This document shows, piece by piece, positions 4 through 62,087 of a DNA stretch of 64,000 nucleotides (position 1 is the first letter of the stretch; each line of letters begins with the position of its first letter). Location of the stretch: NCBI GenBank assembly GCA_036568005.1, contig DATCTJ010000026.1, positions 4,142 to 68,141 of the forward strand, written 5' to 3'. The notes below the pieces were generated by a model. It made no database searches. It was not told the origin of the DNA and was given only the letters and a program-made list of their open reading frames with translations. A program made the translations under genes and the position numbers. This DNA comes from Lutibacter sp. (GTDB lineage: Bacteria > Bacteroidota > Bacteroidia > Flavobacteriales > Flavobacteriaceae).

Positions 4-396
4 ATGAATAAATTGAGAAAAACGATACTTGACAACTTGCCAAAAGGATTTGAGGAAACTTTAAGTTATGGGATGATAGGCTATGTTGTACCTCATTCCA
101 TTTATCCGAACGGTTATCATTGCAATCCAAAATTACCGCTTCCATTTATGAATATCGCTTCCCAGAAAAATTTTATTGCTGTTTACCATATGGGCTTGTA
201 TGCAAACCAAAATCTCTTGGATTGGTTTGTTCAGGAATATCCAAAACATTGCAACACAAAATTGGATATGGGAAAAAGTTGTGTCAGATTTAAAAAAATG
301 GATCAAATCCCCTTCGATTTAATTGCAGAACTTACGAAAAAAGTAACCGTAAAAGAATGGATTAAAGCTTACGAGGAAAGCTTTCAAAAAAAGTAG
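4..396 (+). CDS. DUF1801 (YdhG-like) domain protein; the ATG at 4 may not be the true start because the window begins here
   Basis: Intact 130-aa ORF. Its size and sequence character resemble small DUF1801/YdhG-like proteins; recognition by eye only. Confidence 0.55.
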   Translation: MNKLRKTILDNLPKGFEETLSYGMIGYVVPHSIYPNGYHCNPKLPLPFMNIASQKNFIAVYHMGLYANQNLLDWFVQEYPKHCNTKLDMGKSCVRFKKMDQIPFDLIAELTKKVTVKEWIKAYEESFQKK

Positions 397-520
397 TTTT
401 TTACGGGTATTTATTAATGAATCAACAAATAAACTATGTGCATATTTTGTTCAAATTTGGCTATATTCGTAACCAAAAGAAATTTGTTTCTCTTTTTTGT
501 GGCAACACCAACATTAACCT

Positions 521-2442: not shown

Positions 2443-3402
2443 ATGAAAGCTAATTATCTGAACAGTATAATAGTTATTGGAATGATATTCATTTCAAGTT
2501 TTTTATATGCCCAAAAAACAAATATAGAAGAGGAAAACAGCTTAAAATTTCAAAGCCATTTTTTTGAAGCTTTAAAGCAAAAAGCCATAAAAAACTATAG
2601 CAAAGCCATTGAAAATTTAGAATTGTGTAATGAAATTGATTCTTTGAACGTATCTGTTTTATTTGAATTTTCAAAAAACCATTTGGAGTTAAACAATTAT
2701 TTTGAAGCCGAATTATTTGTTGATAAAGCCCTGCAACAAGAACCAGAAAACAGGTATTTGTTACTACATAAAGTGGCTATTTTAAAAGCACAACGAAATT
2801 TTAATAAAGCTATTGAAGTTCAAAATAAAATACTGAAAATTCAGCCAAAAGATTTCGAAGAATTGGTGTTTCTTTACATCCAAAATCAGAATTTTAAAGA
2901 GGCGGAAGCGCTGATTTCTAAAATTGAAGAAAATGCGATGACAACATTGCGCATAAAATCGTTTAAAAAATTTTTGGAAAATAGAAAAGGGATTCAGGAA
3001 AAGACAGATAAACCTATTGAAATTACAACTGAAAATGTGGATATTGAAACATTAAAAAAATTATACGCCAAGAATAAGGAATATAAAACAGTGCAGAAAA
3101 TTTTGATGCAAGAAGAAAAAGAGGCGCTTTTTGAAGCAGTTTATGCCAACAGTAAAGAAGCTTTGGAACTGTTTCCAGAACAGCCTTTTTTATATAAAAT
3201 GAATGGTTTGGCACTAAATAAGCTGGGAAAATATAATGAAGCAATTGCCGTTTTAAGTATTGGCATTGATTTTGTTACTGATAACAGCACAATGGAAGCC
3301 GATTTTTATGAGCAACTTGCGATAAGCCATGAAAATATTGGAAACAAAAGCGAAGCACTAAAATATAAACAAAGAGCCATTGTATTAAGAAAAGAAAATT
3401 AA
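2443..3402 (+). CDS. TPR-repeat protein with N-terminal signal/anchor
   Basis: The listed ORF starts at TTG 2416; the first ATG is at 2443 (MKANYLNSIIVIGMIFISSFLYAQ). Repeated A/Y/L-spaced helical motifs are typical of TPR (e.g. YSKAIENLELC, YFEAELFVDKALQQEPEN, FNKAIEVQNKILKIQP, YNEAIAVLSIGI). Confidence 0.75.
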   Translation: MKANYLNSIIVIGMIFISSFLYAQKTNIEEENSLKFQSHFFEALKQKAIKNYSKAIENLELCNEIDSLNVSVLFEFSKNHLELNNYFEAELFVDKALQQEPENRYLLLHKVAILKAQRNFNKAIEVQNKILKIQPKDFEELVFLYIQNQNFKEAEALISKIEENAMTTLRIKSFKKFLENRKGIQEKTDKPIEITTENVDIETLKKLYAKNKEYKTVQKILMQEEKEALFEAVYANSKEALELFPEQPFLYKMNGLALNKLGKYNEAIAVLSIGIDFVTDNSTMEADFYEQLAISHENIGNKSEALKYKQRAIVLRKEN

Positions 3403-3403
3403 A

Positions 3404-3518
3404 AGATGAAACGAGCCATAACAAATTTTGATACACTGCAGAATGATTAATGGCGAACCCGCCTACCGCAGGCAGGTCGCATCTGTACCAATAGAAAATA
3501 AAAAATAAACAGATGAAA
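3404..3518 (+). repeat. Intra-operonic repeat unit, copy A (with 20-22-nt GC palindrome), bounded by AGATGAAA at both ends
   Basis: Aligns base-for-base with 58378-58492 and 61993-62087. The 3' AGATGAAA contains the ATG (3513) of the downstream lipoprotein gene. Confidence 0.8.
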
Positions 3519-8297: not shown

Positions 8298-8894
8298 ATG
8301 ATTAAAATACCCCAACAAGCAAAAGCACTTATTTTCGATTTAGATGGCACCATTGCCAACACCATGCCAAATCATTTTTTATCTTGGAGAAAGGCAGTTT
8401 TGCCTTATGGAATCAACTTTGACGCAGCTTTATTTATGCAGTTGACAGGTATGCCGAGAACGGCTACTATTGAAAAACTAAATGAAATGTTCAGCACTAA
8501 AATGAATCCCGATATTGTTGGAAAAGTGAAGGAAGACCATTTTAAAACATTGGTCAACTTAACCGAAGAGATTGAGGTGGTTACCGATGTTATTAAAAAA
8601 TACCATACCATTTTGCCGATGTCCATTGGAACGGGAAGCACAAAAAATGGTGCTAAAAAAACGCTGGAAATTATTGGGTTTGAAAACTATTTTGACATTG
8701 TTATCACTGCTGATGATATTATAAATCACAAACCACATCCCGAAACATTTTTAAAATGCGCGGAACTAATGGGTGTTAAACCACAAGATTGCGTTGTTTT
8801 TGAAGATGGCATATTGGGAATGAATGCGGCCGAAGAAGCCGGAATGATGGTGATTGACGTAAACGATTATTTTAAAATTGATTTTGAAGTTTAG
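8298..8894 (+). CDS. HAD-superfamily hydrolase (beta-phosphoglucomutase-like subfamily IA)
   Basis: Motif I (FDLDGTIANT), motif II (SIGTGS) and a C-terminal FEDGILGMNAA motif. Confidence 0.85.
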   Translation: MIKIPQQAKALIFDLDGTIANTMPNHFLSWRKAVLPYGINFDAALFMQLTGMPRTATIEKLNEMFSTKMNPDIVGKVKEDHFKTLVNLTEEIEVVTDVIKKYHTILPMSIGTGSTKNGAKKTLEIIGFENYFDIVITADDIINHKPHPETFLKCAELMGVKPQDCVVFEDGILGMNAAEEAGMMVIDVNDYFKIDFEV

Positions 8895-10138: not shown

Positions 10139-13100
10139 TTATATTTTTTGAAGCGTTGCCAAAGCTTTATTTATGGAAGTAATTTTATCAAACGTTAACA
10201 AAAGTCGTAACCCATTTTTCGTTTCTTTTTCTTTTATGCTGCACCCGAGCGGATTTTGCTGAACAAATTGTAAAACTTTTGTAAAAACAGGTGTTTGGTA
10301 AAAAGAACTTTGTTGATTGGAAACAAAATAACCAATCATTTTATTTTTTTTCAGAACAATACGTTCTAAACCTAATGATTTGGCAATCCATTTTATGCGA
10401 ACACTGTTTAACAGATCCACCACTTGAACAGGAAGTTCTCCAAATCGATCAATCAATTCCAGTTCAAATTTTTGCAATTCATCTTCGGTTTTAAGTTCAC
10501 TTAATTTGGTGTATAAATTTAGGCGTTCGGATATCACATTGATATAATCATCTGGAAAAAGAATTTCAAAATCGGTGTCAATCTGAATGTCTTTTACATA
10601 ATCTTTCGGCTTTTCATCCTGTTCTTTATACAATTCTTTAAACTCATTTTCCTTCAGTTCCTCAATGGTTTCATTCAATATTTTCTGATAGGTTTCAAAA
10701 CCGATATCATTGATAAATCCGCTTTGTTCCCCACCCAATAAATCGCCTGCACCGCGAATTTCCAAATCTTTCATGGCAATTTGAATCCCGCTACCCAATT
10801 CGGTAAACAATTCAATGGCCTGAATGCGTTTTCGGGCATCATCAGTCATCATATGGTACGGAGGGGTAATAAAATAACAAAACGCTTTTTTGTTTGATCG
10901 CCCAACGCGTCCGCGCATTTGGTGCAAATCGGACAAGCCAAAATTGTTGGCGTTGTTGATAAAAATGGTGTTTGCGTTTGGCACATCCAAACCGCTTTCA
11001 ACAATGGTTGTGGAAACCAACACGTCAAATTCATTGTTGATAAAACCAAGCATCAAGCCTTCCAGCTTTTTGCCATCCATTTGTCCGTGGCCAATTCCAA
11101 TTTTTGCATCGGGAACCAATCGCTGCAACATTCCGGCAACTTCTTTAATGTTTTCGATGCGGTTATGAATAAAAAATACTTGTCCGCCCCGCTGAATTTC
11201 ATAGCGAATAGCATCTCGAATCACTTCTTCACTAAAACGGATCACATTGCTTTCAATGGGAACACGATTTGGTGGCGGTGTGTTGATGACCGATAAATCG
11301 CGCGCCGCCATTAATGAAAACTGCAAGGTTCTCGGGATTGGCGTTGCTGTAAGCGTTAAGGTATCAATATTTTCTTTTAAAGTTTTCAATTTATCTTTAA
11401 CGGCCACGCCAAATTTTTGTTCTTCATCAACAATTAACAAGCCTAGATCTTTGTATTTTATTACCGGATTGGTAAGTTGATGTGTTCCTATCACAATGTC
11501 AACTGACCCATCTTCCAATCCTTTCAGCACAGCTTTTCTTTGATTGGCGGTCCTAAATCGGTTTAAATATTCTACGGTAACCGGAAAATCCTTTAATCGT
11601 TCTGTAAAGGTTTTAAAATGCTGAAAAGCTAAAATAGTGGTTGGTACCAAAATAGCAACTTGTTTCCCATTATCAACAGCTTTAAAAGCGGCCCTGATGG
11701 CAACTTCTGTTTTTCCGAAACCTACATCTCCACAAACCAAACGATCCATTGGGCGTTCATTTTCCATGTCACTTTTCACATCTTGGGTTGATGAAGATTG
11801 ATCTGGTGTGTCTTCGTACAAAAAGCTGGCTTCCAGTTCATGCTGCAAATAACTGTCTGGACGGTATTGAAAACCTTTTTGCATTTTGCGTTTCGCGTAC
11901 AATTCAATCAAATTGAAGGCAATATGTCTAATGCGCGATTTTGTTTTTTGTTTTAATGCTTTCCAGGCGCCGGAACCCAACTTATGCAATTTAGGTGCAG
12001 TGCCGTCTTTGCCGTTATATTTGGCAATTTTATGAAGTGAATGAATGCTGATGTATAAAATATCCCGATCACCATAAATCAATTTAATGGCTTCTTGCTG
12101 TTTGCCTTCGACATCAATTTTTTGAAGTCCGCCAAATTTCCCGATGCCGTGGTCAATATGCGTCACATAATCGCCAATTTCAAGATTGGTCAATTCTTTT
12201 AAGGTGATGGTTTGTTTTTTGGCATAGCCGTTTTTTAAGCGGAACTTATGATAACGCTCAAAAATTTGATGATCGGTATAACAAACCAATTTATTTTCTT
12301 CATCAATAAATCCTTGAAACAATGGAAAAACGAGGGTTGTATATTCCAATTCCTTGTCGAGGTCGCTAAAAATATCGTGAAAACGATCGGCTTGTTTTTG
12401 TGAATCGCAAAACAGATAATTTTTATAGCCATTTTCGCTATTTTGATGAAAATTTTCAACAAGTAAATTGAATTGTTTATTGAATGATGGTTGTGGTTTT
12501 GTGTTGAAGATCACAAGGTCATGCTGAACCTGCCTTGCCGGCAGGCAGGCTTGTTTCAACATCTTTTCATTTGATTTTGAATCGTCTTGAGAAAGCCTTG
12601 CATTCACAATTTCAACCAAAGAAAAAGTCTGTAATTCTTTTTTTATGAGGTCGCCATCACAAAAAAGTTCATTTGGTTTTGCGTGATTTAAAGCCGAAGA
12701 CAAATCTTTAAAAGCGATTTCTGCCTTGCCAAAAAGGTTGTCCAGGGTATTATAAAGCAGGTTTAAATCTTTAGCAAAAACAATGGTTTTATCAGAAATG
12801 TATTTTAAAAAACTGTCTCTTTTTTCAGTTAGTGCTTTATTTTCAACATTGGGCATTATGCCAATTTTATTTATTTTTTCTGTCGAAAGTTGCGTTTCAA
12901 CATCAAAAGTACGGATGCTTTCCACTTCATCATCAAAAAACTCAATACGATAAGGTTCATCATTCGAAAAAGAAAAGACATCAATAATACCGCCTCTAGT
13001 AGAAAATTCTCCTGGCTCACTTACAAAATCCACTCGGTTAAATTGGTATTCAAACAAAACCTCATTCACAAAATCTAAACTCAGTTTATCATTGACACTA

Positions 13101-13561
13101 ATTTTTAAAGTGTTTCGGTTTAACTCTGCCTTAGTGACAACCTGTTCAAAAAGCGCTTCAGGATAAGTGACAATAATTGCCGGTTTTTTACGAGAATTAA
13201 TTCGGTTTAAAACTTCTGAACGTAACAAAACATTGGCGTTGTCGGTTTCTTCTATTTGATAAGGCCTTCGGTAGGAACCCGGATAGAAAAGCACATCCTT
13301 ATCGTTTAAAAGTAGCTCCAAATCATTTAAATAATAGGCAGCTTCTTCTTTATCATCAAAGATTAACAAAAATGGTTTGTCAACTTTTTTAAAACTTTCA
13401 GAAATAACAAAAGACAATGACGATCCAACCAAATTCGAAATTTGAAAATGGTGATTATCCTTTCGTAATAGTGGAACCAACTGTTTTTGCTCAACAATTT
13501 GTCCGTAAATTTTAACAATAGCTTGTTTGCTCAAATTTGCAAATTTTGCCAAAGGTAGCAT
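10139..13561 (-). CDS. mfd: Transcription-repair coupling factor Mfd
   Basis: Superfamily-2 helicase motifs (GDVGFGKTEVA, LLIVDEEQKFG, TLTATPIPRT, QMRGRVGRS) and a CarD-like domain (GDYVTHIDHGIGKF). Start set at the ATG at 13561 (MLPLAKFAN); the 78-codon upstream extension in the ORF track has no Mfd-like sequence. Confidence 0.95.
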   Translation of the reverse strand: MLPLAKFANLSKQAIVKIYGQIVEQKQLVPLLRKDNHHFQISNLVGSSLSFVISESFKKVDKPFLLIFDDKEEAAYYLNDLELLLNDKDVLFYPGSYRRPYQIEETDNANVLLRSEVLNRINSRKKPAIIVTYPEALFEQVVTKAELNRNTLKISVNDKLSLDFVNEVLFEYQFNRVDFVSEPGEFSTRGGIIDVFSFSNDEPYRIEFFDDEVESIRTFDVETQLSTEKINKIGIMPNVENKALTEKRDSFLKYISDKTIVFAKDLNLLYNTLDNLFGKAEIAFKDLSSALNHAKPNELFCDGDLIKKELQTFSLVEIVNARLSQDDSKSNEKMLKQACLPARQVQHDLVIFNTKPQPSFNKQFNLLVENFHQNSENGYKNYLFCDSQKQADRFHDIFSDLDKELEYTTLVFPLFQGFIDEENKLVCYTDHQIFERYHKFRLKNGYAKKQTITLKELTNLEIGDYVTHIDHGIGKFGGLQKIDVEGKQQEAIKLIYGDRDILYISIHSLHKIAKYNGKDGTAPKLHKLGSGAWKALKQKTKSRIRHIAFNLIELYAKRKMQKGFQYRPDSYLQHELEASFLYEDTPDQSSSTQDVKSDMENERPMDRLVCGDVGFGKTEVAIRAAFKAVDNGKQVAILVPTTILAFQHFKTFTERLKDFPVTVEYLNRFRTANQRKAVLKGLEDGSVDIVIGTHQLTNPVIKYKDLGLLIVDEEQKFGVAVKDKLKTLKENIDTLTLTATPIPRTLQFSLMAARDLSVINTPPPNRVPIESNVIRFSEEVIRDAIRYEIQRGGQVFFIHNRIENIKEVAGMLQRLVPDAKIGIGHGQMDGKKLEGLMLGFINNEFDVLVSTTIVESGLDVPNANTIFINNANNFGLSDLHQMRGRVGRSNKKAFCYFITPPYHMMTDDARKRIQAIELFTELGSGIQIAMKDLEIRGAGDLLGGEQSGFINDIGFETYQKILNETIEELKENEFKELYKEQDEKPKDYVKDIQIDTDFEILFPDDYINVISERLNLYTKLSELKTEDELQKFELELIDRFGELPVQVVDLLNSVRIKWIAKSLGLERIVLKKNKMIGYFVSNQQSSFYQTPVFTKVLQFVQQNPLGCSIKEKETKNGLRLLLTFDKITSINKALATLQKI
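12529..12550. repeat. GC-rich palindrome (CCTGCCTTGCCGGCAGGCAGGC) inside the mfd coding sequence
   Basis: 17 of 22 nt are G/C in AT-rich coding DNA. It contains the perfect palindrome TGCCGGCA flanked by CCTGCC/GGCAGG and matches the palindromes at 3457-3478, 32159-32178, 41094-41111 and 58430-58451. It is read in frame as ACLPARQ. Confidence 0.7.
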
Positions 13562-13628
13562 TTTAAAAAAAATGAGGAAAAATTCAGCAAAAATTATTAA
13601 ATTTATAGGAACTAAATAAAAAAATCTT

Positions 13629-14069
13629 ATGCCAATTTCAGATTTATACCCAACCGGACTGCATGAACAAAATATTGGGCATTTTGCATCAATTGCTAGG
13701 CTAGCTTTACTCGACAATAAGATTAGTGCCGAAGAGCAAATATTATTAGAGAGATTGGCCGTAAGATTGGATATAAGCAAAAGTGAGTTTGACACTATAT
13801 TAAAAGCACCAGAGAATTATCCAATAGACTCACCAGTGAGTTATGAGGAACGTTTAGAGCGTTTATATGATTTAACTAAAATGCTATTCTTGGATAAAAA
13901 CCCAACCATTGATAAAACCTCAACATTGGACAGAATTGCTGTGGGTCTTGGGTTTCCTGCCGAAAATGCAAGAGCTATTGTAAAGGAAGCTATGAAATTC
14001 TTTTTAAAAGAACCTGATGTGGAAGATTTTAAAAAAGTAATAAAACAAGCCAATCCCATTAAACATTAG
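13629..14069 (+). CDS. TerB-like (tellurite-resistance TerB family) small protein, paralog 1
   Basis: 146 aa with a two-lobed helical pattern: HFASIARLALLDNKISAEEQILLERLA, then LYDLTKMLFLDKNPTIDKTSTLDRIAVGLGFP. Confidence 0.6.
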   Translation: MPISDLYPTGLHEQNIGHFASIARLALLDNKISAEEQILLERLAVRLDISKSEFDTILKAPENYPIDSPVSYEERLERLYDLTKMLFLDKNPTIDKTSTLDRIAVGLGFPAENARAIVKEAMKFFLKEPDVEDFKKVIKQANPIKH

Positions 14070-19861: not shown

Positions 19862-20650
19862 ATGAAACATGTAAAAATTGCCTTTTTGGCTTTGTTATTA
19901 ATTGTATCCTGTCGTACTACTAAAGACACCAGTAATGCCCAGAATATACACGATGCCGATAATGACGGCGTTGAAGATTGTAGAGATAGATGTCCAAATG
20001 TACCTGGTTTAGCTAAATTTTACGGTTGCCCTGATACAGATGGAGACGGGATTGAAGACAGTAAAGATAGATGCCCAGAAGTTGCGGGTTCAAAACTATT
20101 ACAAGGTTGCCCAGATAGAGATGGAGACGGTACTCCAGATATAGACGATGCTTGTCCAGATGTTCCTGGTCCAAAAACAAATGCAGGTTGTCCATTTAAA
20201 GATACTGATGGAGATGGTGTAATTGACTTAATTGACAGATGTGTAACTGTAAAAGGTCCAGCTTCAAATTATGGTTGTCCAGTGATACCAGGTCAAGAGA
20301 TTATGACTCAATTGAATGAGTATGGAAGAACTATTTTGTTTGATACCGCTAAATGGACTTTCAAACAAGAGTCTTATTCTGTTTTACAGCCGATGACAAC
20401 AATATTAAAAGAATACCCAGACGCTGATTTTGTAATTGAAGGTCATACTGACAGTGTTGGTTCAGATCAATCTAATCAGTTATTATCTGAAAGAAGAGCA
20501 AATGCAGTTAAAGACTATTTCATCGCAAATGGCATCAGTGTAGACAGATTAACAACAAAAGCTTTTGGAGAAAGTAAACCTATTGACACTAATGACACGC
20601 CTGCAGGTAGAGCAAACAACAGACGTACTGAAGTTAAATTAGCAGAATAA
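19862..20650 (+). CDS. OmpA-family lipoprotein: thrombospondin type-3 repeats plus OmpA C-terminal domain, no barrel
   Basis: Lipobox LLIVS-C, four to five D-x-D-x-D-G/CP repeats ([57 protein letters not shown]), and an OmpA_C motif ([23 protein letters not shown] ... NRRTEV). Confidence 0.85.
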   Translation: MKHVKIAFLALLLIVSCRTTKDTSNAQNIHDADNDGVEDCRDRCPNVPGLAKFYGCPDTDGDGIEDSKDRCPEVAGSKLLQGCPDRDGDGTPDIDDACPDVPGPKTNAGCPFKDTDGDGVIDLIDRCVTVKGPASNYGCPVIPGQEIMTQLNEYGRTILFDTAKWTFKQESYSVLQPMTTILKEYPDADFVIEGHTDSVGSDQSNQLLSERRANAVKDYFIANGISVDRLTTKAFGESKPIDTNDTPAGRANNRRTEVKLAE

Positions 20651-20678
20651 CAGGTTGTAAATTTATATATAACATTCT

Positions 20679-20716
20679 AATCGCCTAAAAGTTTAACATT
20701 TAGGCGATTTTTTTTG
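20679..20716 (+). terminator. Rho-independent terminator
   Basis: AATCGCCTAAA / TTTAGGCGATT, an 11-bp stem, followed by a T run. Confidence 0.7.
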
Positions 20717-20857
20717 CGTAAAACATATTAATAATCTAATTTTAAATAAGAAATACAGAAAATTAAAATCTGAAAGTTATATTTTTTGAATAAATGATAA
20801 GAATAGCATAACTTTGCTAATAAGTAAAAAAAAGAATATTAATTAATTTTTATAAAA

Positions 20858-22216
20858 ATGAAACATTTAAAAATTGCCATGCTGGCTTTATTTCTAATTA
20901 CTGGTTTAAGTAATCTAAACGCACAAGACAAAAATAACCCCTGGGCTATTGGTATTGGCGTAAACGCAGTAGATTTTTACCCTACAAATGCTCTTGGCAG
21001 TTGGGGTGATGAGTTTTTTAACATAGGAGACCATTATAATATACTTCCTGCCATATCAAGAATAACTGTCGGTAAATATTTGGAGGATGGCTTTACTATT
21101 GAAGGAACAGGTTCTTTGAACCAAATTTCCAAAATTGGAGACAAAAGCGTTAGTGATTTAATGTATGTTGGTTTAGATGGCGCTTTAAAGTACGACCTAA
21201 ACTATGTCATAGGAGAAACAGGATGGTTTGATCCTTATGTTTTAGTTGGTGGAGGTTACACTTGGATAGATAAATTCGGAACAGCTACTGTAAATGGTGG
21301 TGGTGGAATTAATTTTTGGTTTAGTGATAATATTGGTTTAAATGTTGAGTCTAAATACAAACATTCATTTAACAGCGATAATGTTTTAAGACACTTTCAA
21401 CATTCTGTTGGGATTGTATTAAAATTTGGAGGAACAGACACAGATGGTGATGGTGTTTACGATAAAGATGATGCTTGTCCAGATGTATTCGGATTGGCGG
21501 CATATAATGGTTGTCCTGATACTGATGGTGATGGCGTTATTGATTCAAAAGACGATTGCCCTACTGTAGCAGGTTTAGCAGCTTTAAATGGTTGTCCAGA
21601 TGCTGATGGTGATGGAATTGCAGATAAAGATGACGCTTGTCCAAATGAGAAAGGAACTAAAGCAAACAAAGGTTGTCCAGATACTGACGGAGATGGAGTT
21701 GTTGATAAAGATGATGCTTGTCCAACCGTAGCCGGTCCAGCCGCAAATAAAGGTTGCCCTTGGCCAGATACTGACGGAGATGGTGTTACAGATAATATAG
21801 ACAAATGCCCAACTGTTGCTGGTCCAGCTTCAAATGATGGATGTCCTGTAGAACCAACTGTTGAGGTTATGGCAACATTGAATGAATATGCAAAAACTAT
21901 TTTATTTGATACAGGAAAAGCAACTTTCAAAAAACAAGCTGTGGATGTATTAAAAGCAATGACAACAATTTTCAAGGAATATCCACAAGCTGATTTTGTA
22001 ATTGCTGGTCATACTGACAGCGTTGGTTCTGATAGATCAAACCAATTATTGTCTGAAAGAAGAGCTGCTGCAGTTAGAGATTATTTAATCTCAAATGGTA
22101 TCAATGCTGATAGATTGACAACTGTAGGTTTTGGAGAAAGCAAACCAGTTGACACTAATAATACAGCCGCAGGCCGTCAAAATAACAGACGTACAGAGGT
22201 TACTTTAAAAAAGTAA
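20858..22216 (+). CDS. OmpA-family outer-membrane protein: beta-barrel plus thrombospondin type-3 repeats plus OmpA C-terminal domain
   Basis: Signal peptide, barrel homologous to 14680-15309, six DTDGDG/CP repeats, and [23 protein letters not shown] ... NRRTEV. Confidence 0.9.
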
Positions 22217-32111: not shown

Positions 32112-32119
32112 TAAATTTG
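32112..32119 (+). promoter_or_regulatory. Candidate Bacteroidota -7 promoter box TAAATTTG
   Basis: Exact match to TAnnTTTG, 16 nt upstream of the first (truncated) tRNA copy. Confidence 0.4.
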
Positions 32120-32134
32120 CACTCCGATACATTT

Positions 32135-32186
32135 GCCTCGATGGCGGAATTGGTAGACCTGTCTGCCGACAGGCAGGCGCGCTGGA
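32135..32186 (+). pseudogene. Dead 5' fragment of tRNA-Leu(CAA): nt 1-24, a 20-nt palindromic insert, then nt 25-32
   Basis: 32135-32158 and 32179-32186 are identical to 32446-32477. The intervening CTGTCTGCCGACAGGCAGGC is absent from the intact tRNA. Confidence 0.85.
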
Positions 32187-32196
32187 ATGAAAAAGT

Positions 32197-32445
32197 ATGT
32201 TTTATGTATATGCAATATCAAGTTTATCACATAATTATATTTATGTAGGATTGACACAAGACGTTGATGAAAGGATAAAAAGACATAATGGCGGTAGAGA
32301 AAGAACTACAAAATTTTATAAACCTTTTGAATTAATTTTTTCAGAGGTTTGTGAAACAAGAATTGAAGCTCGATTTCGTGAAAAGTATTGGAAATCTAGC
32401 ATAGGAAAAGAAAAGTTAAGAATTTTAAGGAATTCTTTAAAATAG
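32197..32445 (+). CDS. GIY-YIG nuclease family protein (YhbQ/UPF0213-like, 82 aa)
   Basis: FYVYAI ... YIYVGLT ... ERIKRHNGG ... EARFREKYWK matches the GIY / YIG / Arg / Glu core of GIY-YIG domains. Confidence 0.85.
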   Translation: MFYVYAISSLSHNYIYVGLTQDVDERIKRHNGGRERTTKFYKPFELIFSEVCETRIEARFREKYWKSSIGKEKLRILRNSLK

Positions 32446-32529
32446 GCCTCGATGGCGGAATTGGTAGACGCGCTGGATTCAAAATCCAGTTTTCGCAAGG
32501 AAGTGTGGGTTCGATTCCCACTCGAGGTA
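32446..32529 (+). tRNA. tRNA-Leu (anticodon CAA), class II with long variable arm, no encoded CCA
   Basis: Manual fold: acceptor GCCTCGA/TCGAGGT, anticodon stem CTGGA/TCCAG with loop TTCAAAA, variable arm TTTC-GCAA-GGAA, T arm GTGGG-TTCGATT-CCCAC, discriminator A. Confidence 0.9.
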
Positions 32530-32533
32530 CTAA

Positions 32534-32567
32534 AAAACCCTGTTAGTCAACTGACTAACAGGGTTTT
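32534..32567. terminator. Bidirectional terminator between tRNA-Leu and the convergent nfnB-like gene
   Basis: AAAACCCTGTTAGTC / GACTAACAGGGTTTT, a 15-bp perfect stem with A/T runs on both sides. Confidence 0.75.
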
Positions 32568-41060: not shown

Positions 41061-41165
41061 GTCATCTTTCGACTGTGCCCAGCACAAACATGCTGCCTTC
41101 CGCAGGCAGGTTCGCTGTCAGTCATTTCGTTGGGTAATACACCTTTTACCATGCTTGTTTCCTAA
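41061..41165 (-). repeat. Diverged copy E of the intra-operonic repeat unit (minus orientation, contains the GC palindrome)
   Basis: The reverse complement reads GAAACAAGCATGG ... AATGACTGACAGCGAACCTGCCTGCGGAAGGCAGCATGT ... AAGATGAC. This is colinear with GAAACGAGCAT ... GATGATTAATGGCGAACCTACCTGCGGCAGGCAGGCAGCATCTGT ... CAGATGAAA of copy B. Confidence 0.55.
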
Positions 41166-58355: not shown

Positions 58356-58377
58356 CAAATGAATTTGAATGAATAAT

Positions 58378-58492
58378 AAATGAAACGAGCATTACAAATT
58401 TTGATACACAAGGGGATGATTAATGGCGAACCTACCTGCGGCAGGCAGGCAGCATCTGTTACCAATAATAAATAAAATTTAAACAGATGAAA
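58378..58492 (+). repeat. Intra-operonic repeat unit, copy B (with GC palindrome)
   Basis: Colinear with 3404-3518. It ends in AGATGAAA, which supplies the ATG at 58487. Confidence 0.8.
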
Positions 58493-60882: not shown

Positions 60883-61950
60883 ATGTATCAAATAGAGGAA
60901 CCGACATATTTTTATTATTTGGCAATTATCCCCGCAATAATTGTGCTGTTTCTTTTGGTGCTTTGGTGGAAATCACGCATTCAAAAGCGATTTGCAGATC
61001 ACAAATTAATAAAAAAATTAAGTCCGGAAAAATCAACCTTTAAATCGTTTTTAAAGTTATTTGTTTTTTGTTTTGCCCTGTTCTTTTTAATTATATCATT
61101 GGCAAACCCTAAAATGGGAACAAAATTAGAAACAGTTAAACGCGAAGGTGTTGATATTGTTTTTGCTTTGGATGTTTCAAAAAGTATGGAGGCCGAAGAT
61201 ATTGCGCCAAACCGGTTGGAAAAAGCCAAGCAAATTATCACAAAAGTGATAGAAAACTTGGGAAGCGACCGCATAGGAATTATTATTTATGCAGGAAGTT
61301 CGTATCCGCTGCTTCCAATCACAACGGATTATGCCGCGGCAAAGATGTTTTTGCAAAATGCAAACACAGAGATGGTTTCCAATCAAGGAACAGCTATAAA
61401 TGACGCAATTGATCGCGCACTTTCTTATTATGACAATGATGAGCAAACCAACCGATTTCTTGTGATAGTTTCAGATGGTGAAGACCACGAAGAAAACACC
61501 ATGGAATTGGCTAAAGAAGCTGCGGAAAAAGGAATAAAAATTTATACTGTGGGCATTGGAACTGCAAAAGGAGGCCCTATTCCAATTAGGGAGAACGGAA
61601 GGGTTGTTGCTTATAAAAAGAACAATAAAGGAGCGGTGGTTGTCACCCAAATGAATGAACAAGTTTTAAGGGATATTGCCATCGCTGGAAAAGGAAAATA
61701 CATAAATGGAAATAAAACGCAGGAAACCATTGAAATTATTAAAGAAGTTTTGAAAAAAGCCGAAAAAAACGAGTTTGAGACCAAACAATTTTCAGATTAT
61801 GAAGATCAGTTTCAGTGGTTTGTGGGCATTGGTTTATTGTTGTTAATTATTGACGTAATATTACTTGAAAAGAAAACAAAATGGATTCAAAAACTAAATT
61901 TATTTAATGAAAAGAGCCTCACAGCTGATGATACAAAAAGGAATGACTAA
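60883..61950 (+). CDS. batB: VWA-domain membrane protein BatB
   Basis: TM segments, MIDAS motif DVSKSM, VSDGEDHE, and a C-terminal TM segment. Confidence 0.85.
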   Translation: MYQIEEPTYFYYLAIIPAIIVLFLLVLWWKSRIQKRFADHKLIKKLSPEKSTFKSFLKLFVFCFALFFLIISLANPKMGTKLETVKREGVDIVFALDVSKSMEAEDIAPNRLEKAKQIITKVIENLGSDRIGIIIYAGSSYPLLPITTDYAAAKMFLQNANTEMVSNQGTAINDAIDRALSYYDNDEQTNRFLVIVSDGEDHEENTMELAKEAAEKGIKIYTVGIGTAKGGPIPIRENGRVVAYKKNNKGAVVVTQMNEQVLRDIAIAGKGKYINGNKTQETIEIIKEVLKKAEKNEFETKQFSDYEDQFQWFVGIGLLLLIIDVILLEKKTKWIQKLNLFNEKSLTADDTKRND

Positions 61951-62087
61951 TGGCGAATAGCAGCTGTACCAACAAAAAAATAAAATATAAACAGATGAAA
62001 CGAGCCATAACAAATTCTGATACACAGCAGAATGATAAATGGCGACTGCATCTGTATAAATAAAAAATAAAATATAAAGAGATGAAA
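61929..62087 (+). repeat. Intra-operonic repeat, 1.5 tandem units (C1 partial, C2 full), both lacking the GC palindrome
   Basis: 61993-62087 is colinear with copy A except for a 20-nt deletion at the palindrome site. 61929-62000 matches the 3' two-thirds of the unit. Confidence 0.75.

Follow-up and report, generated by a model that had tools for sequence, protein, structure and literature searches.

A 64,000-nt stretch of Lutibacter sp. DNA (34.5% GC; hereafter the window, to whose positions all coordinates refer) carries a tRNA-Leu(CAA) gene preceded by a small insertion, which is composed of a dead 5' piece of the same tRNA, a 20-nt GC-rich hairpin lodged within this piece and the gene of a GIY-YIG domain protein of only 82 amino acids. 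Relatives of this open reading frame (ORF) were found directly beside tRNA genes at every locus that could be assessed, and the hairpin is conserved to a higher degree than the protein. We propose, with moderate confidence and about as ready to accept the idea as to doubt it, that the locus belongs to a large family of selfish, tRNA-resident cassettes of nuclease plus hairpin, in which a structure-directed nuclease would spread by means of tRNA homology. An earlier reading made from the letters of the window alone (the sequence-only reading) had proposed a small selfish cassette for which a tRNA gene serves both as landing site and for expression, and this outline is supported by the comparisons reported here. 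The parts of the locus are listed below; labels such as L001 and L045 denote comparison loci fetched in this work, and labels such as P0006 denote protein database entries.

32112–32119 and 32128–32135, plus strand: Bacteroidota-type promoter boxes TAAATTTG and TACATTTG, respectively, from a scan for TAnnTTTG
32135–32157, plus strand: dead 5' fragment of tRNA-Leu(CAA), nt 1–23, from its identity to the live tRNA and its location at the ancestral tRNA position
32158–32177, plus strand: GC-rich hairpin of 20 nt, CCTGTCTGCCGACAGGCAGG, from its conservation, compensatory changes and density near ORFs
32178–32186, plus strand: dead tRNA fragment, nt 24–32, comprising the 3' strand of the D stem and the 5' strand of the anticodon stem
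32187–32196, plus strand: A-rich linker before the ATG, 10 nt from fragment to ATG, unconserved among relatives
32197–32445, plus strand: gene of a predicted minimal GIY-YIG nuclease of 82 amino acids, Slx1/UPF0213 (YhbQ-like) type, with its TAG stop at 32443–32445
32446–32530, plus strand: live tRNA-Leu(CAA), called by ARAGORN and matching the Rfam tRNA family with 60.8 bits
32534–32567, plus strand: intrinsic-terminator-like hairpin that closes the unit and at which colinearity with the Lutibacter locus L001 stops

Insertion of the cassette at tRNA-Leu(CAA)

Positions 32135–32158 and 32179–32186 match nt 1–32 of the live tRNA without a mismatch (32/32). Both the identity and the coordinates given for it in the sequence-only reading were borne out by a search for repeats of live-tRNA 12-mers, which within the 64-kb window detected the dead fragment only; chance is far too small to account for an exact 24-mer repeat within 64 kb at this GC content. 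In an equivalent register, which is the most informative one, the fragment reads tRNA nt 1–23 (acceptor 5' strand, 5' strand of the D stem and D loop), then CCTGTCTGCCGACAGGCAGG between nt 23 and 24, then nt 24–32. The identity had been said to end at the anticodon loop, which holds in the window and does not hold in the relatives, in which the end of the dead fragment varies from about nt 29 to nt 49. As had also been described, a lone 82-codon YhbQ-like GIY-YIG ORF is located between the fragment and the live tRNA, the sole tRNA called by ARAGORN in the window, and its TAG stop directly abuts tRNA nucleotide +1. No plus-strand TAnnTTTG box was found within 32136–32445, in accordance with the earlier claim of a promoter upstream of the fragment; however, not one box but two lie there, the second being that at 32128–32135. 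The search of Rfam returned nothing besides the tRNA in the region of the locus.

For the comparison with close relatives, the divergently transcribed prs gene was used as anchor, and 80 metagenome loci with Prs 77–89% identical were compared. tRNA-Leu(CAA) adjoins prs in about 70 of the 80 loci, and relatives of the ORF are present in three of these (L077, L083 and L115), the others being empty; the empty sites that the sequence-only reading proposed to look for in close relatives are thus the prevailing state. This polymorphism of presence and absence at a fixed site among close relatives is a pattern expected of a homing endonuclease gene. In the closest empty loci (L042, L043 and L046–L050) the same promoter box lies 15–20 nt upstream of tRNA +1, and the position of this +1 corresponds to that of the dead fragment in the window. 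It follows from the empty-site comparison that the fragment occupies the ancestral tRNA position, that the cassette adds 311 bp and that the tRNA promoter precedes the ORF. Relative to the empty sites the cassette is therefore an insertion of 311 bp, in agreement with the size of about 311 bp estimated before any relative was compared, and the boxes at 32112–32135 are, judged from this alignment, the ancestral tRNA-Leu promoter, which now precedes the dead fragment. The whole arrangement is shared with a Lutibacter metagenome-assembled genome (MAG; L001) at 87% nucleotide identity, colinear to the end of the terminator and not beyond. Downstream, none of the 80 prs loci shows the synteny of the window (gltD), so that on its right-hand side the insert is delimited by the tRNA, the terminator and the comparison with L001.

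tRNA-Leu(CAA) also hosts a different integrating element, which is marked by GGTACAACA-type direct repeats just past the tRNA terminator and was seen in L045 (tRNA at 374–458, reverse strand), L030 (3255–3460), L047 and L034 (2560–2960). In L045 and L030, this element imports a complete tRNA-Leu allele of its own, and what remains of the resident tRNA is a 5' fragment without hairpin. L045 serves as a natural control, as the dead 5' tRNA fragment of the other element has no GIY-YIG gene nearby and contains no hairpin.

Linkage of the ORF family to tRNA genes

A scan with one genome per species detected 41 loci encoding relatives of the ORF with identities of 52–89%; carriers include isolates of Flavobacteriaceae such as Formosa sp. 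S-31, Salinimicrobium flavum and Tamlana sedimentorum. A tRNA gene is located on the same strand directly beside the ORF in all 39 assessable genome loci, the remainder being cut by contig ends, and these tRNAs comprise 33 Leu(CAA), four Leu(UAA), one Leu(CAG) and one Met. When 1.84 billion representatives were searched, 330 clusters (50% identity) matched at E ≤ 1e-10, a number that rose to 3986 at E ≤ 1e-3. Distant representatives with 35–50% identity were likewise found beside tRNA genes (11/11, with L180 cut by a contig end), namely those of Leu(GAG), Leu(TAG), Arg(CCT), Thr(UGU), Gly(UCC), Glu(UUC), Asn(GUU), Ala(UGC) and Val(UAC), at loci with GC contents of 36–62% in which the three-part layout recurs. 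In total, this layout was present in 58 loci across many tRNA types and phyla, covering about a dozen isoacceptor types; besides the genome loci and the distant representatives, two cases came from viral contigs (L153 and L163). The linkage to tRNA genes, for which the sequence-only reading had proposed to scan other short GIY-YIG ORFs of the genome, extends to every assessable family member, and the partial tRNA duplication to be looked for beside them flanks nearly all of them.

The family displays two layouts, which intermingle in the protein tree. Layout A begins with a 5' tRNA piece, followed by the ORF and the live tRNA, with a gap of 0–7 nt between stop codon and tRNA +1 in 19 of 26 loci and an overlap in some further loci. 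In layout B, the order is live tRNA, terminator, ORF (the ATG of which comes after the T run of the terminator), 3' tRNA piece and a second copy of the terminator. Tandem arrays were observed in L018, L026 (three units of 327 bp), L115 and L183, dead full-length tRNA copies in L021, L036 and L184, and pseudogenes of the ORF in L019, L026, L040 and L083, while in L021, L030, L008 and L019 the fragment and the adjacent live tRNA differ in the acceptor stem and hence represent different alleles. As far as sequences can tell, arrays, pseudogenes, dead copies and allele mismatches point to turnover of the cassettes. Flank clustering of the 41 loci recognised host pth-ctc-prs as the only conserved neighbours and no integrase among them, and no close relatives on phages or plasmids were found in IMG/VR, INPHARED and PLSDB.

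Many database versions of the protein (among them P0006, P0010, P0016, P0121 and P0128) have lengths of 100–140 amino acids, the ORF having been called upstream through the dead fragment and the hairpin, and some gene calls extend onward into the tRNA (L010, L017, L181 and L188); the over-long ORFs in the databases appear to be a systematic annotation artefact. In L193/L194, a Y1_Tnp gene (PF01797, IS200/RAYT-type; 284–967) lies about 500 nt upstream of a distant cassette which sits between tRNA-Val and tRNA-Phe; it is the sole Y1_Tnp case, though relevant to a possible mobilisation of short hairpins. Downstream of the distant cassette in L153, a tRNA copy (815–1100) consists of the sequence up to the 5' strand of the anticodon stem, followed by structured GC-rich sequence and a Cys-rich ORF; ARAGORN gives no call for it, and it may be an intron-containing tRNA in a phage contig.

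Conservation of the hairpin in the dead tRNA pieces

The 20-nt interruption of the fragment was taken as incidental in the sequence-only reading and is, on the contrary, better conserved and more diagnostic than any other part of the element. In the window, the stem is formed by positions 1–6 and 11–16 with the loop TGCC and the tail CAGG, and the hairpin interrupts the fragment where the D loop meets the D stem. Across loci it takes the form CCTG(C/T)C-loop-G(G/A)CAGG, the perfect version of which is the 20-bp palindrome CCTGCCTGCCGGCAGGCAGG. Nearly all dead tRNA pieces contain one to three copies, which occur in both orientations and before as well as after the ORF; the insertion points 9/10, 15/16 and 23/24 in 5' pieces and 53/54 in 3' pieces recur, all of them at or beside the D loop and the T loop. 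When hairpins were counted with a strict definition within 200 nt of the ORF in the 58 cassettes, at least one copy was present in 47 of them, most others having variant hairpins or being decayed. The density near the ORFs was 2.86 per kb as compared to 0.008 per kb in the other 253 kb of these loci, a difference of about 360-fold, and the cassette-free prs loci contained one copy in 665 kb. The terminator hairpins beside the cassettes were without hairpin-family copies in the sequences read.

At position 23/24, the hairpin has the same sequence and orientation in 15 loci with an identity of 98.7%, its sole variable base being located in the loop, whereas in the same loci identity amounts to 44% for the linker that precedes the ATG, 55% for third codon positions and 77% for first and second codon positions. 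Moreover, the compensatory changes C5:G12 to T5:A12 and CCTATC/GATAGG (L020) preserve the 6-bp stem and the 4-nt loop. Because the hairpin is 98.7% identical where synonymous divergence of the ORF is often above 1, it is, on this comparative evidence, a constrained part of the cassette and more strongly so than the protein. The compensatory change that creates an asymmetry is better explained by a folded single strand than by a palindrome in duplex form.

Properties of the 82-residue protein

The deduced protein matches the Pfam GIY-YIG family (PF01541) with E=6.2e-18 and 65.3 bits as compared to a cut-off of 22.6, covering profile positions 1–74 of 78. In alignments of 45–47 sequences, Y5, Y14, Y16, R26 and E62 are invariant and H30/N31 invariant or nearly so, and no conserved Asn follows residue 31; the Tyr, Arg and Glu positions presumably form the active site. 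The AlphaFold2 (AF2) model, with a predicted local distance difference test (pLDDT) score of 96.6, consists of three strands and three helices and has no further domain. The only solved sequence relatives are UPF0213 proteins (1zg2, E=2.6e-4; 1ywl, E=4.7e-3), and Foldseek ranked 1zg2 first, followed by the eukaryotic Slx1 structures 6seh, 7cq2 and 4xm5 (TMq 0.58–0.67), ahead of I-TevI and UvrC. Neither the Pfam profile nor the AF2 model revealed a DNA-binding module besides the catalytic domain. According to profile and model, the protein is a bare minimal GIY-YIG domain of the Slx1/UPF0213 lineage and a predicted nuclease. With ratios of non-synonymous to synonymous substitution rates (dN/dS) of 0.05–0.27 and dS often above 1, the ORF is under purifying selection as estimated from these alignments. 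PADLOC, PHROGs and NCBIfam yielded no useful name of a defence system or curated family.

A survey of the superfamily puts 1zg2 and 1ywl in the Slx1 lineage and treats its bacterial members as minimal domains, which lack both auxiliary domains and the C-terminal Asn found in the UvrC/homing-endonuclease lineage (PMC1564403). Slx1 itself is a structure-specific nuclease for branched DNA. The cassette protein has the same fold and lineage as Slx1/UPF0213 proteins such as YhbQ, BH0048 and EF2693. However, Slx1 acts with its partner Slx4 in the repair of branched DNA, and the bacterial homologues are predicted repair proteins of vertical descent (PMC1564403); tRNA linkage, dead tRNA copies or a cognate hairpin are mentioned for Slx1/UPF0213 neither there nor in other literature found.

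Proposed expression and spread of the cassette

Following these observations, we propose that the cassette is built from a minimal GIY-YIG gene, a dead partial host tRNA with its hairpin(s) and an intact tRNA which would sustain the host. The old tRNA promoter would drive the dead fragment, the hairpin, the nuclease ORF and the tRNA as one transcript, as suggested by the short gaps between stop codon and tRNA and by the lack of a promoter box inside the ORF of the window. Subsequently, RNase P cleavage at tRNA +1 would release the tRNA and an mRNA ending at the stop codon, which may hold nuclease levels low. The use of the tRNA promoter as expression platform had been put forward in the sequence-only reading; the layout fits such a shared transcript from which the tRNA is processed out, and it is from the layout that we infer co-transcription.

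Both layouts would be expected if a tRNA gene underwent one crossover with a unit, circular or in tandem, that combines the ORF with part of a tRNA: a 5' part would lead to layout A and a 3' part to layout B, and an intact tRNA would be left only if the crossover took place on the outer side of the hairpin. The nuclease probably recognises structure, be it the cognate hairpin, stem-loops of tRNA DNA or both, since an 82-amino-acid Slx1-type protein is unlikely to read a long sequence and since many tRNA types are occupied. Nicks or breaks inside tRNA-homologous DNA may then stimulate integration, repair-templated copying and the expansion of arrays. The hairpins, in turn, split the direct repeat into pieces of 9–24 nt, by which deletion of the cassette would be slowed.

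Several points weigh against this proposal. The cutting activity and the substrate of the protein are predictions, and what the hairpin does is deduced solely from its conservation and its location beside the ORF. A cut at the hairpin within the element would favour loss or conversion of the cassette rather than its spread, which makes the copying step conjectural. The homology arms of 9–24 nt are short for RecA-type recombination. The window and the Lutibacter MAG have the cassette in common (87% nucleotide identity), and selection on it is purifying, a combination that also fits a retained gene useful to the host. Furthermore, exact hairpin 20-mers occur in 58 stretches of viral contigs, 56 of which have no ORF of the family nearby, so that the hairpin can occur in the absence of a linked nuclease.

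A bolder version of the proposal takes nuclease and 20-nt hairpin as a two-part mobile system. Here, the nuclease would recognise its cognate DNA hairpin as well as stem-loop junctions in tRNA genes, hairpins would be inserted into D-loop and T-loop positions, one tRNA copy would be killed, and the cassette would be copied or amplified along with the replacement tRNA it supplies, which would amount to a gene-drive or addiction strategy against tRNA genes at large, with the orphan hairpins in genes and phage genomes as its non-autonomous offspring. We offer this version tentatively and are inclined to doubt it.

As an alternative, the cassette might be subject to classic free-standing homing, in which the nuclease would read and cut the uninterrupted tRNA gene, repair would use the cassette allele as template, and the hairpin would be an immunity scar that destroys the cut site in the fragment and blocks deletion. 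The patchy distribution with empty sites is in line with this explanation, the allele mismatches between fragment and tRNA resemble co-conversion, tandem arrays would be expected if the live tRNA were cut and then repaired from the neighbouring fragment, and the fixed hairpin positions 9/10, 15/16, 23/24 and 53/54 could mark cut sites. Moreover, phage T4 offers a precedent, as its SegB is a GIY-YIG homing enzyme encoded within a tRNA cluster (PMC2330249). Despite this, the protein has 82 amino acids and no DNA-binding domain and groups with Slx1/UPF0213 and not with the homing-endonuclease lineage. The presence of an identical intact target in the same genome is hard to reconcile with immunity, the occupation of a dozen or so tRNA types by one family is unlike what a long sequence-specific site would allow, and an immunity scar needs no sequence that is conserved at the level of 98.7%. 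Homing in its sequence-specific form is unlikely, and we regard the explanation as a whole as doubtful.

A role to the benefit of the host, either of the gene as a guard or repair function at tRNA loci that are hot spots of integration or of fragment and hairpin as RNA regulatory leader or trailer, is difficult to reconcile with the fact that the ORF is missing at the same locus in about 95% of close relatives and with the existence of pseudogenes and tandem arrays. The sequence conservation of the hairpin exceeds the need of a generic stabilising stem, and no Rfam family matches the region. Points in favour are the strong purifying selection on the ORF, the persistence of the cassette in both the window and L001 at 87% nucleotide identity, the targeting of tRNA-Leu(CAA) by other integrating elements in L030, L034, L045 and L047, and the occurrence of the hairpin in both orientations and both upstream and downstream of the ORF, as might be expected for a stabilising RNA stem. 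Taken together, we judge such a role improbable.

Hairpin copies outside the cassettes

Copies of the hairpin family are also present elsewhere in the window, where the motif CTGCC-N2-10-GGCAG occurs three times as compared to 0.16 expected. Two orphan copies were located as follows.

12529–12549, no strand assigned: orphan hairpin-family copy CCTGCCTTGCCGGCAGGCAGG, 21 nt, in frame in an Mfd-like ORF
41092–41110, no strand assigned: orphan hairpin-family copy GCTGCCTTCCGCAGGCAGG, intergenic, between two minus-strand ORFs

The Mfd-like ORF (10139–13795, minus strand) encodes 1218 amino acids, of which ACLPARQ are encoded by the in-frame hairpin copy, and its hairpin-bearing region fails to align with solved Mfd structures. 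From its sequence context, this copy looks like a mini-palindrome inserted in a protein-coding gene. GC-rich mini-palindromes in AT-rich genomes comprise the GC clusters of mitochondria, the Rickettsia palindromic elements and the small dispersed repeats of cyanobacteria, which enter protein and RNA genes and leave no obvious duplication of the target. We take the in-frame mfd copy at 12529–12549 to be of a type akin to these elements, and we know of none of these mini-palindromes that is tied to a GIY-YIG gene or to tRNA-gene fragments.

An explanation in which the locus is a passive relic, i.e., a decayed tandem tRNA duplication or the remains of a larger element, with the ORF as passenger and mini-hairpins accumulating in dead DNA rich in stem-loops, would draw on these orphan copies in the window and in viral contigs and on the ORF-free 5' fragments that tRNA-importing elements leave behind (L045 and a second fragment in L030). 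It would also be in accordance with a modest preference for loop-stem junctions: insertion within 1–2 nt of an apical hairpin loop was observed in 37–42% of cases as compared to 20–23% in controls (p about 0.0015, 65 sites), a signal that is weak. However, a relic would not be expected to show the three-part layout in 58 loci with many tRNA types and phyla, and neither an integrase nor any other conserved neighbour was found. The ORF-free dead fragment in L045 is without hairpin, the terminator hairpins beside cassettes carry no copies in the sequences read, hairpin density near the ORF is about 360 times the background, and the hairpin at 23/24 keeps the same sequence and orientation in 15 loci with synonymous-saturated ORFs. 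For these reasons, a passive origin is very improbable. A group I intron or split tRNA was rejected, as the tRNA is intact and contiguous, Rfam detected no intron at E ≤ 1 and the 10 nt before the ATG leave no room for a ribozyme, and so was a larger integrative element, since flank clustering of the 41 loci yields host genes only.

Further candidate explanations of the hairpin itself were tried and rejected. As a general seeker of hairpin loops it was negative in a strict test (25% vs. 31%), and a looser test was modestly positive and is treated as weak. A dispersal of the hairpin in step with the ORF was not supported, as the flanks of other cassettes are almost without orphans and hairpin-rich viral contigs are without ORF. 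The view of the hairpin as two joined element ends, following the logic of miniature inverted-repeat transposable elements (MITEs), was abandoned because no half-hairpins bracket an ORF in the cassette sequences. A sequencing-adapter artefact was dismissed given that the hairpin is found at orthologous positions, with variants, in isolate genomes; to our knowledge, it is also unlike common sequencing-adapter sequences.

Additional observations concern repeats and hairpins, both of the window and of viral contigs. One repeat of the window, intergenic and about 95 nt long, starts with ATGAAACGAGCCATAACAAATTTTGATACAC and ends with ..GATGATTAATGGCGAA; it is located at 3387–3509, 58360–58482 and 61900–62060, just upstream of ORFs with signal-peptide-like N-termini, and has no match in Rfam. 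Two of its copies carry a hairpin-family insert (3458–3476 and 58431–58449) and two tandem copies near 62000 lack it, so that filled and empty versions of one site of this repeat would be at hand. In the high-GC viral contigs L146 (2239–2330) and L123 (about 8570–8660), a tRNA-Met(CAU) contains the exact 20-bp palindrome in the variable-loop region; ARAGORN called the L146 copy as a tRNA of 92 nt, and this copy may still function as a tRNA, with the hairpin forming an additional arm. In the viral contigs L126, L148, L159, L167 and L175, hairpin copies are nested in or directly adjoin other hairpin-family copies. A further repeat of the window (20021–21812) consists of seven 58-nt units, mostly at a spacing of 81 nt, that code for Asp/Gly-rich repeats (..CCAGATACTGATGGAGATGG..) and appears to be an ordinary repeat-protein feature unrelated to the cassette.

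Comparison with known systems

The searchable full-text literature, coverage of which is incomplete so that an earlier description is possible, contained no description of tRNA-linked minimal GIY-YIG cassettes or of the hairpin palindrome. In its proposed mode of action, the cassette would work like a free-standing homing-endonuclease gene. SegB of T4, which promotes preferential inheritance and segmental amplification of the phage tRNA region (PMC2330249, PMC13096335), resembles it in being a GIY-YIG gene among or next to tRNA genes with a patchy distribution. Contrarily, SegB belongs to the GIY-YIG homing-endonuclease group and has a defined cut site (PMC2330249), whereas the cassette protein is a bare 82-amino-acid Slx1/UPF0213 domain, and the cassette is chromosomal in bacteria and flanked by a dead tRNA piece with a conserved hairpin. 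Islands and prophages that target tRNA genes share with the cassette the tRNA landing site, a partial duplicate and the restoration of a working tRNA (PMC9897764). They differ in being kilobases long, in having an integrase and in usually duplicating the 3' part, while the cassette is about 0.3 kb in size, lacks an integrase and has a 5' or 3' duplication.

REP/RAYT systems (REPINs) likewise combine a short palindrome beside a single small nuclease-type gene with orphans elsewhere (PMC3116915, PMC3733652). However, RAYTs are HUH/Y1 transposases and REPs are abundant and extragenic; the gene of the cassette encodes a GIY-YIG protein, which sets it apart from REP/RAYT as defined. Furthermore, the hairpins of the cassettes are concentrated in the dead tRNA pieces beside the gene and, unlike REPs, most cassette loci are without nearby orphans.

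Implications

If the proposed reading is correct, the cassettes of about 0.3 kb would be among the smallest self-contained selfish DNA elements in bacteria, and the long-uncharacterised bacterial Slx1/UPF0213 (YhbQ-type) nucleases would gain a biological setting. With hundreds of clusters at 50% identity, GC contents of 36–62% and about a dozen isoacceptor types, the family is not a curiosity of one genome. It would account for problems in annotation, namely tRNA genes that are partial or interrupted by a hairpin, and ORFs labelled 'GIY-YIG family' whose N-termini are spuriously extended. The pairing of an 82-amino-acid nuclease with a 20-nt hairpin could yield a compact tool for structure-directed cutting of DNA. 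Finally, the finding bears on tRNA loci as recombination hot spots and on the spread of very short palindromes into genes.

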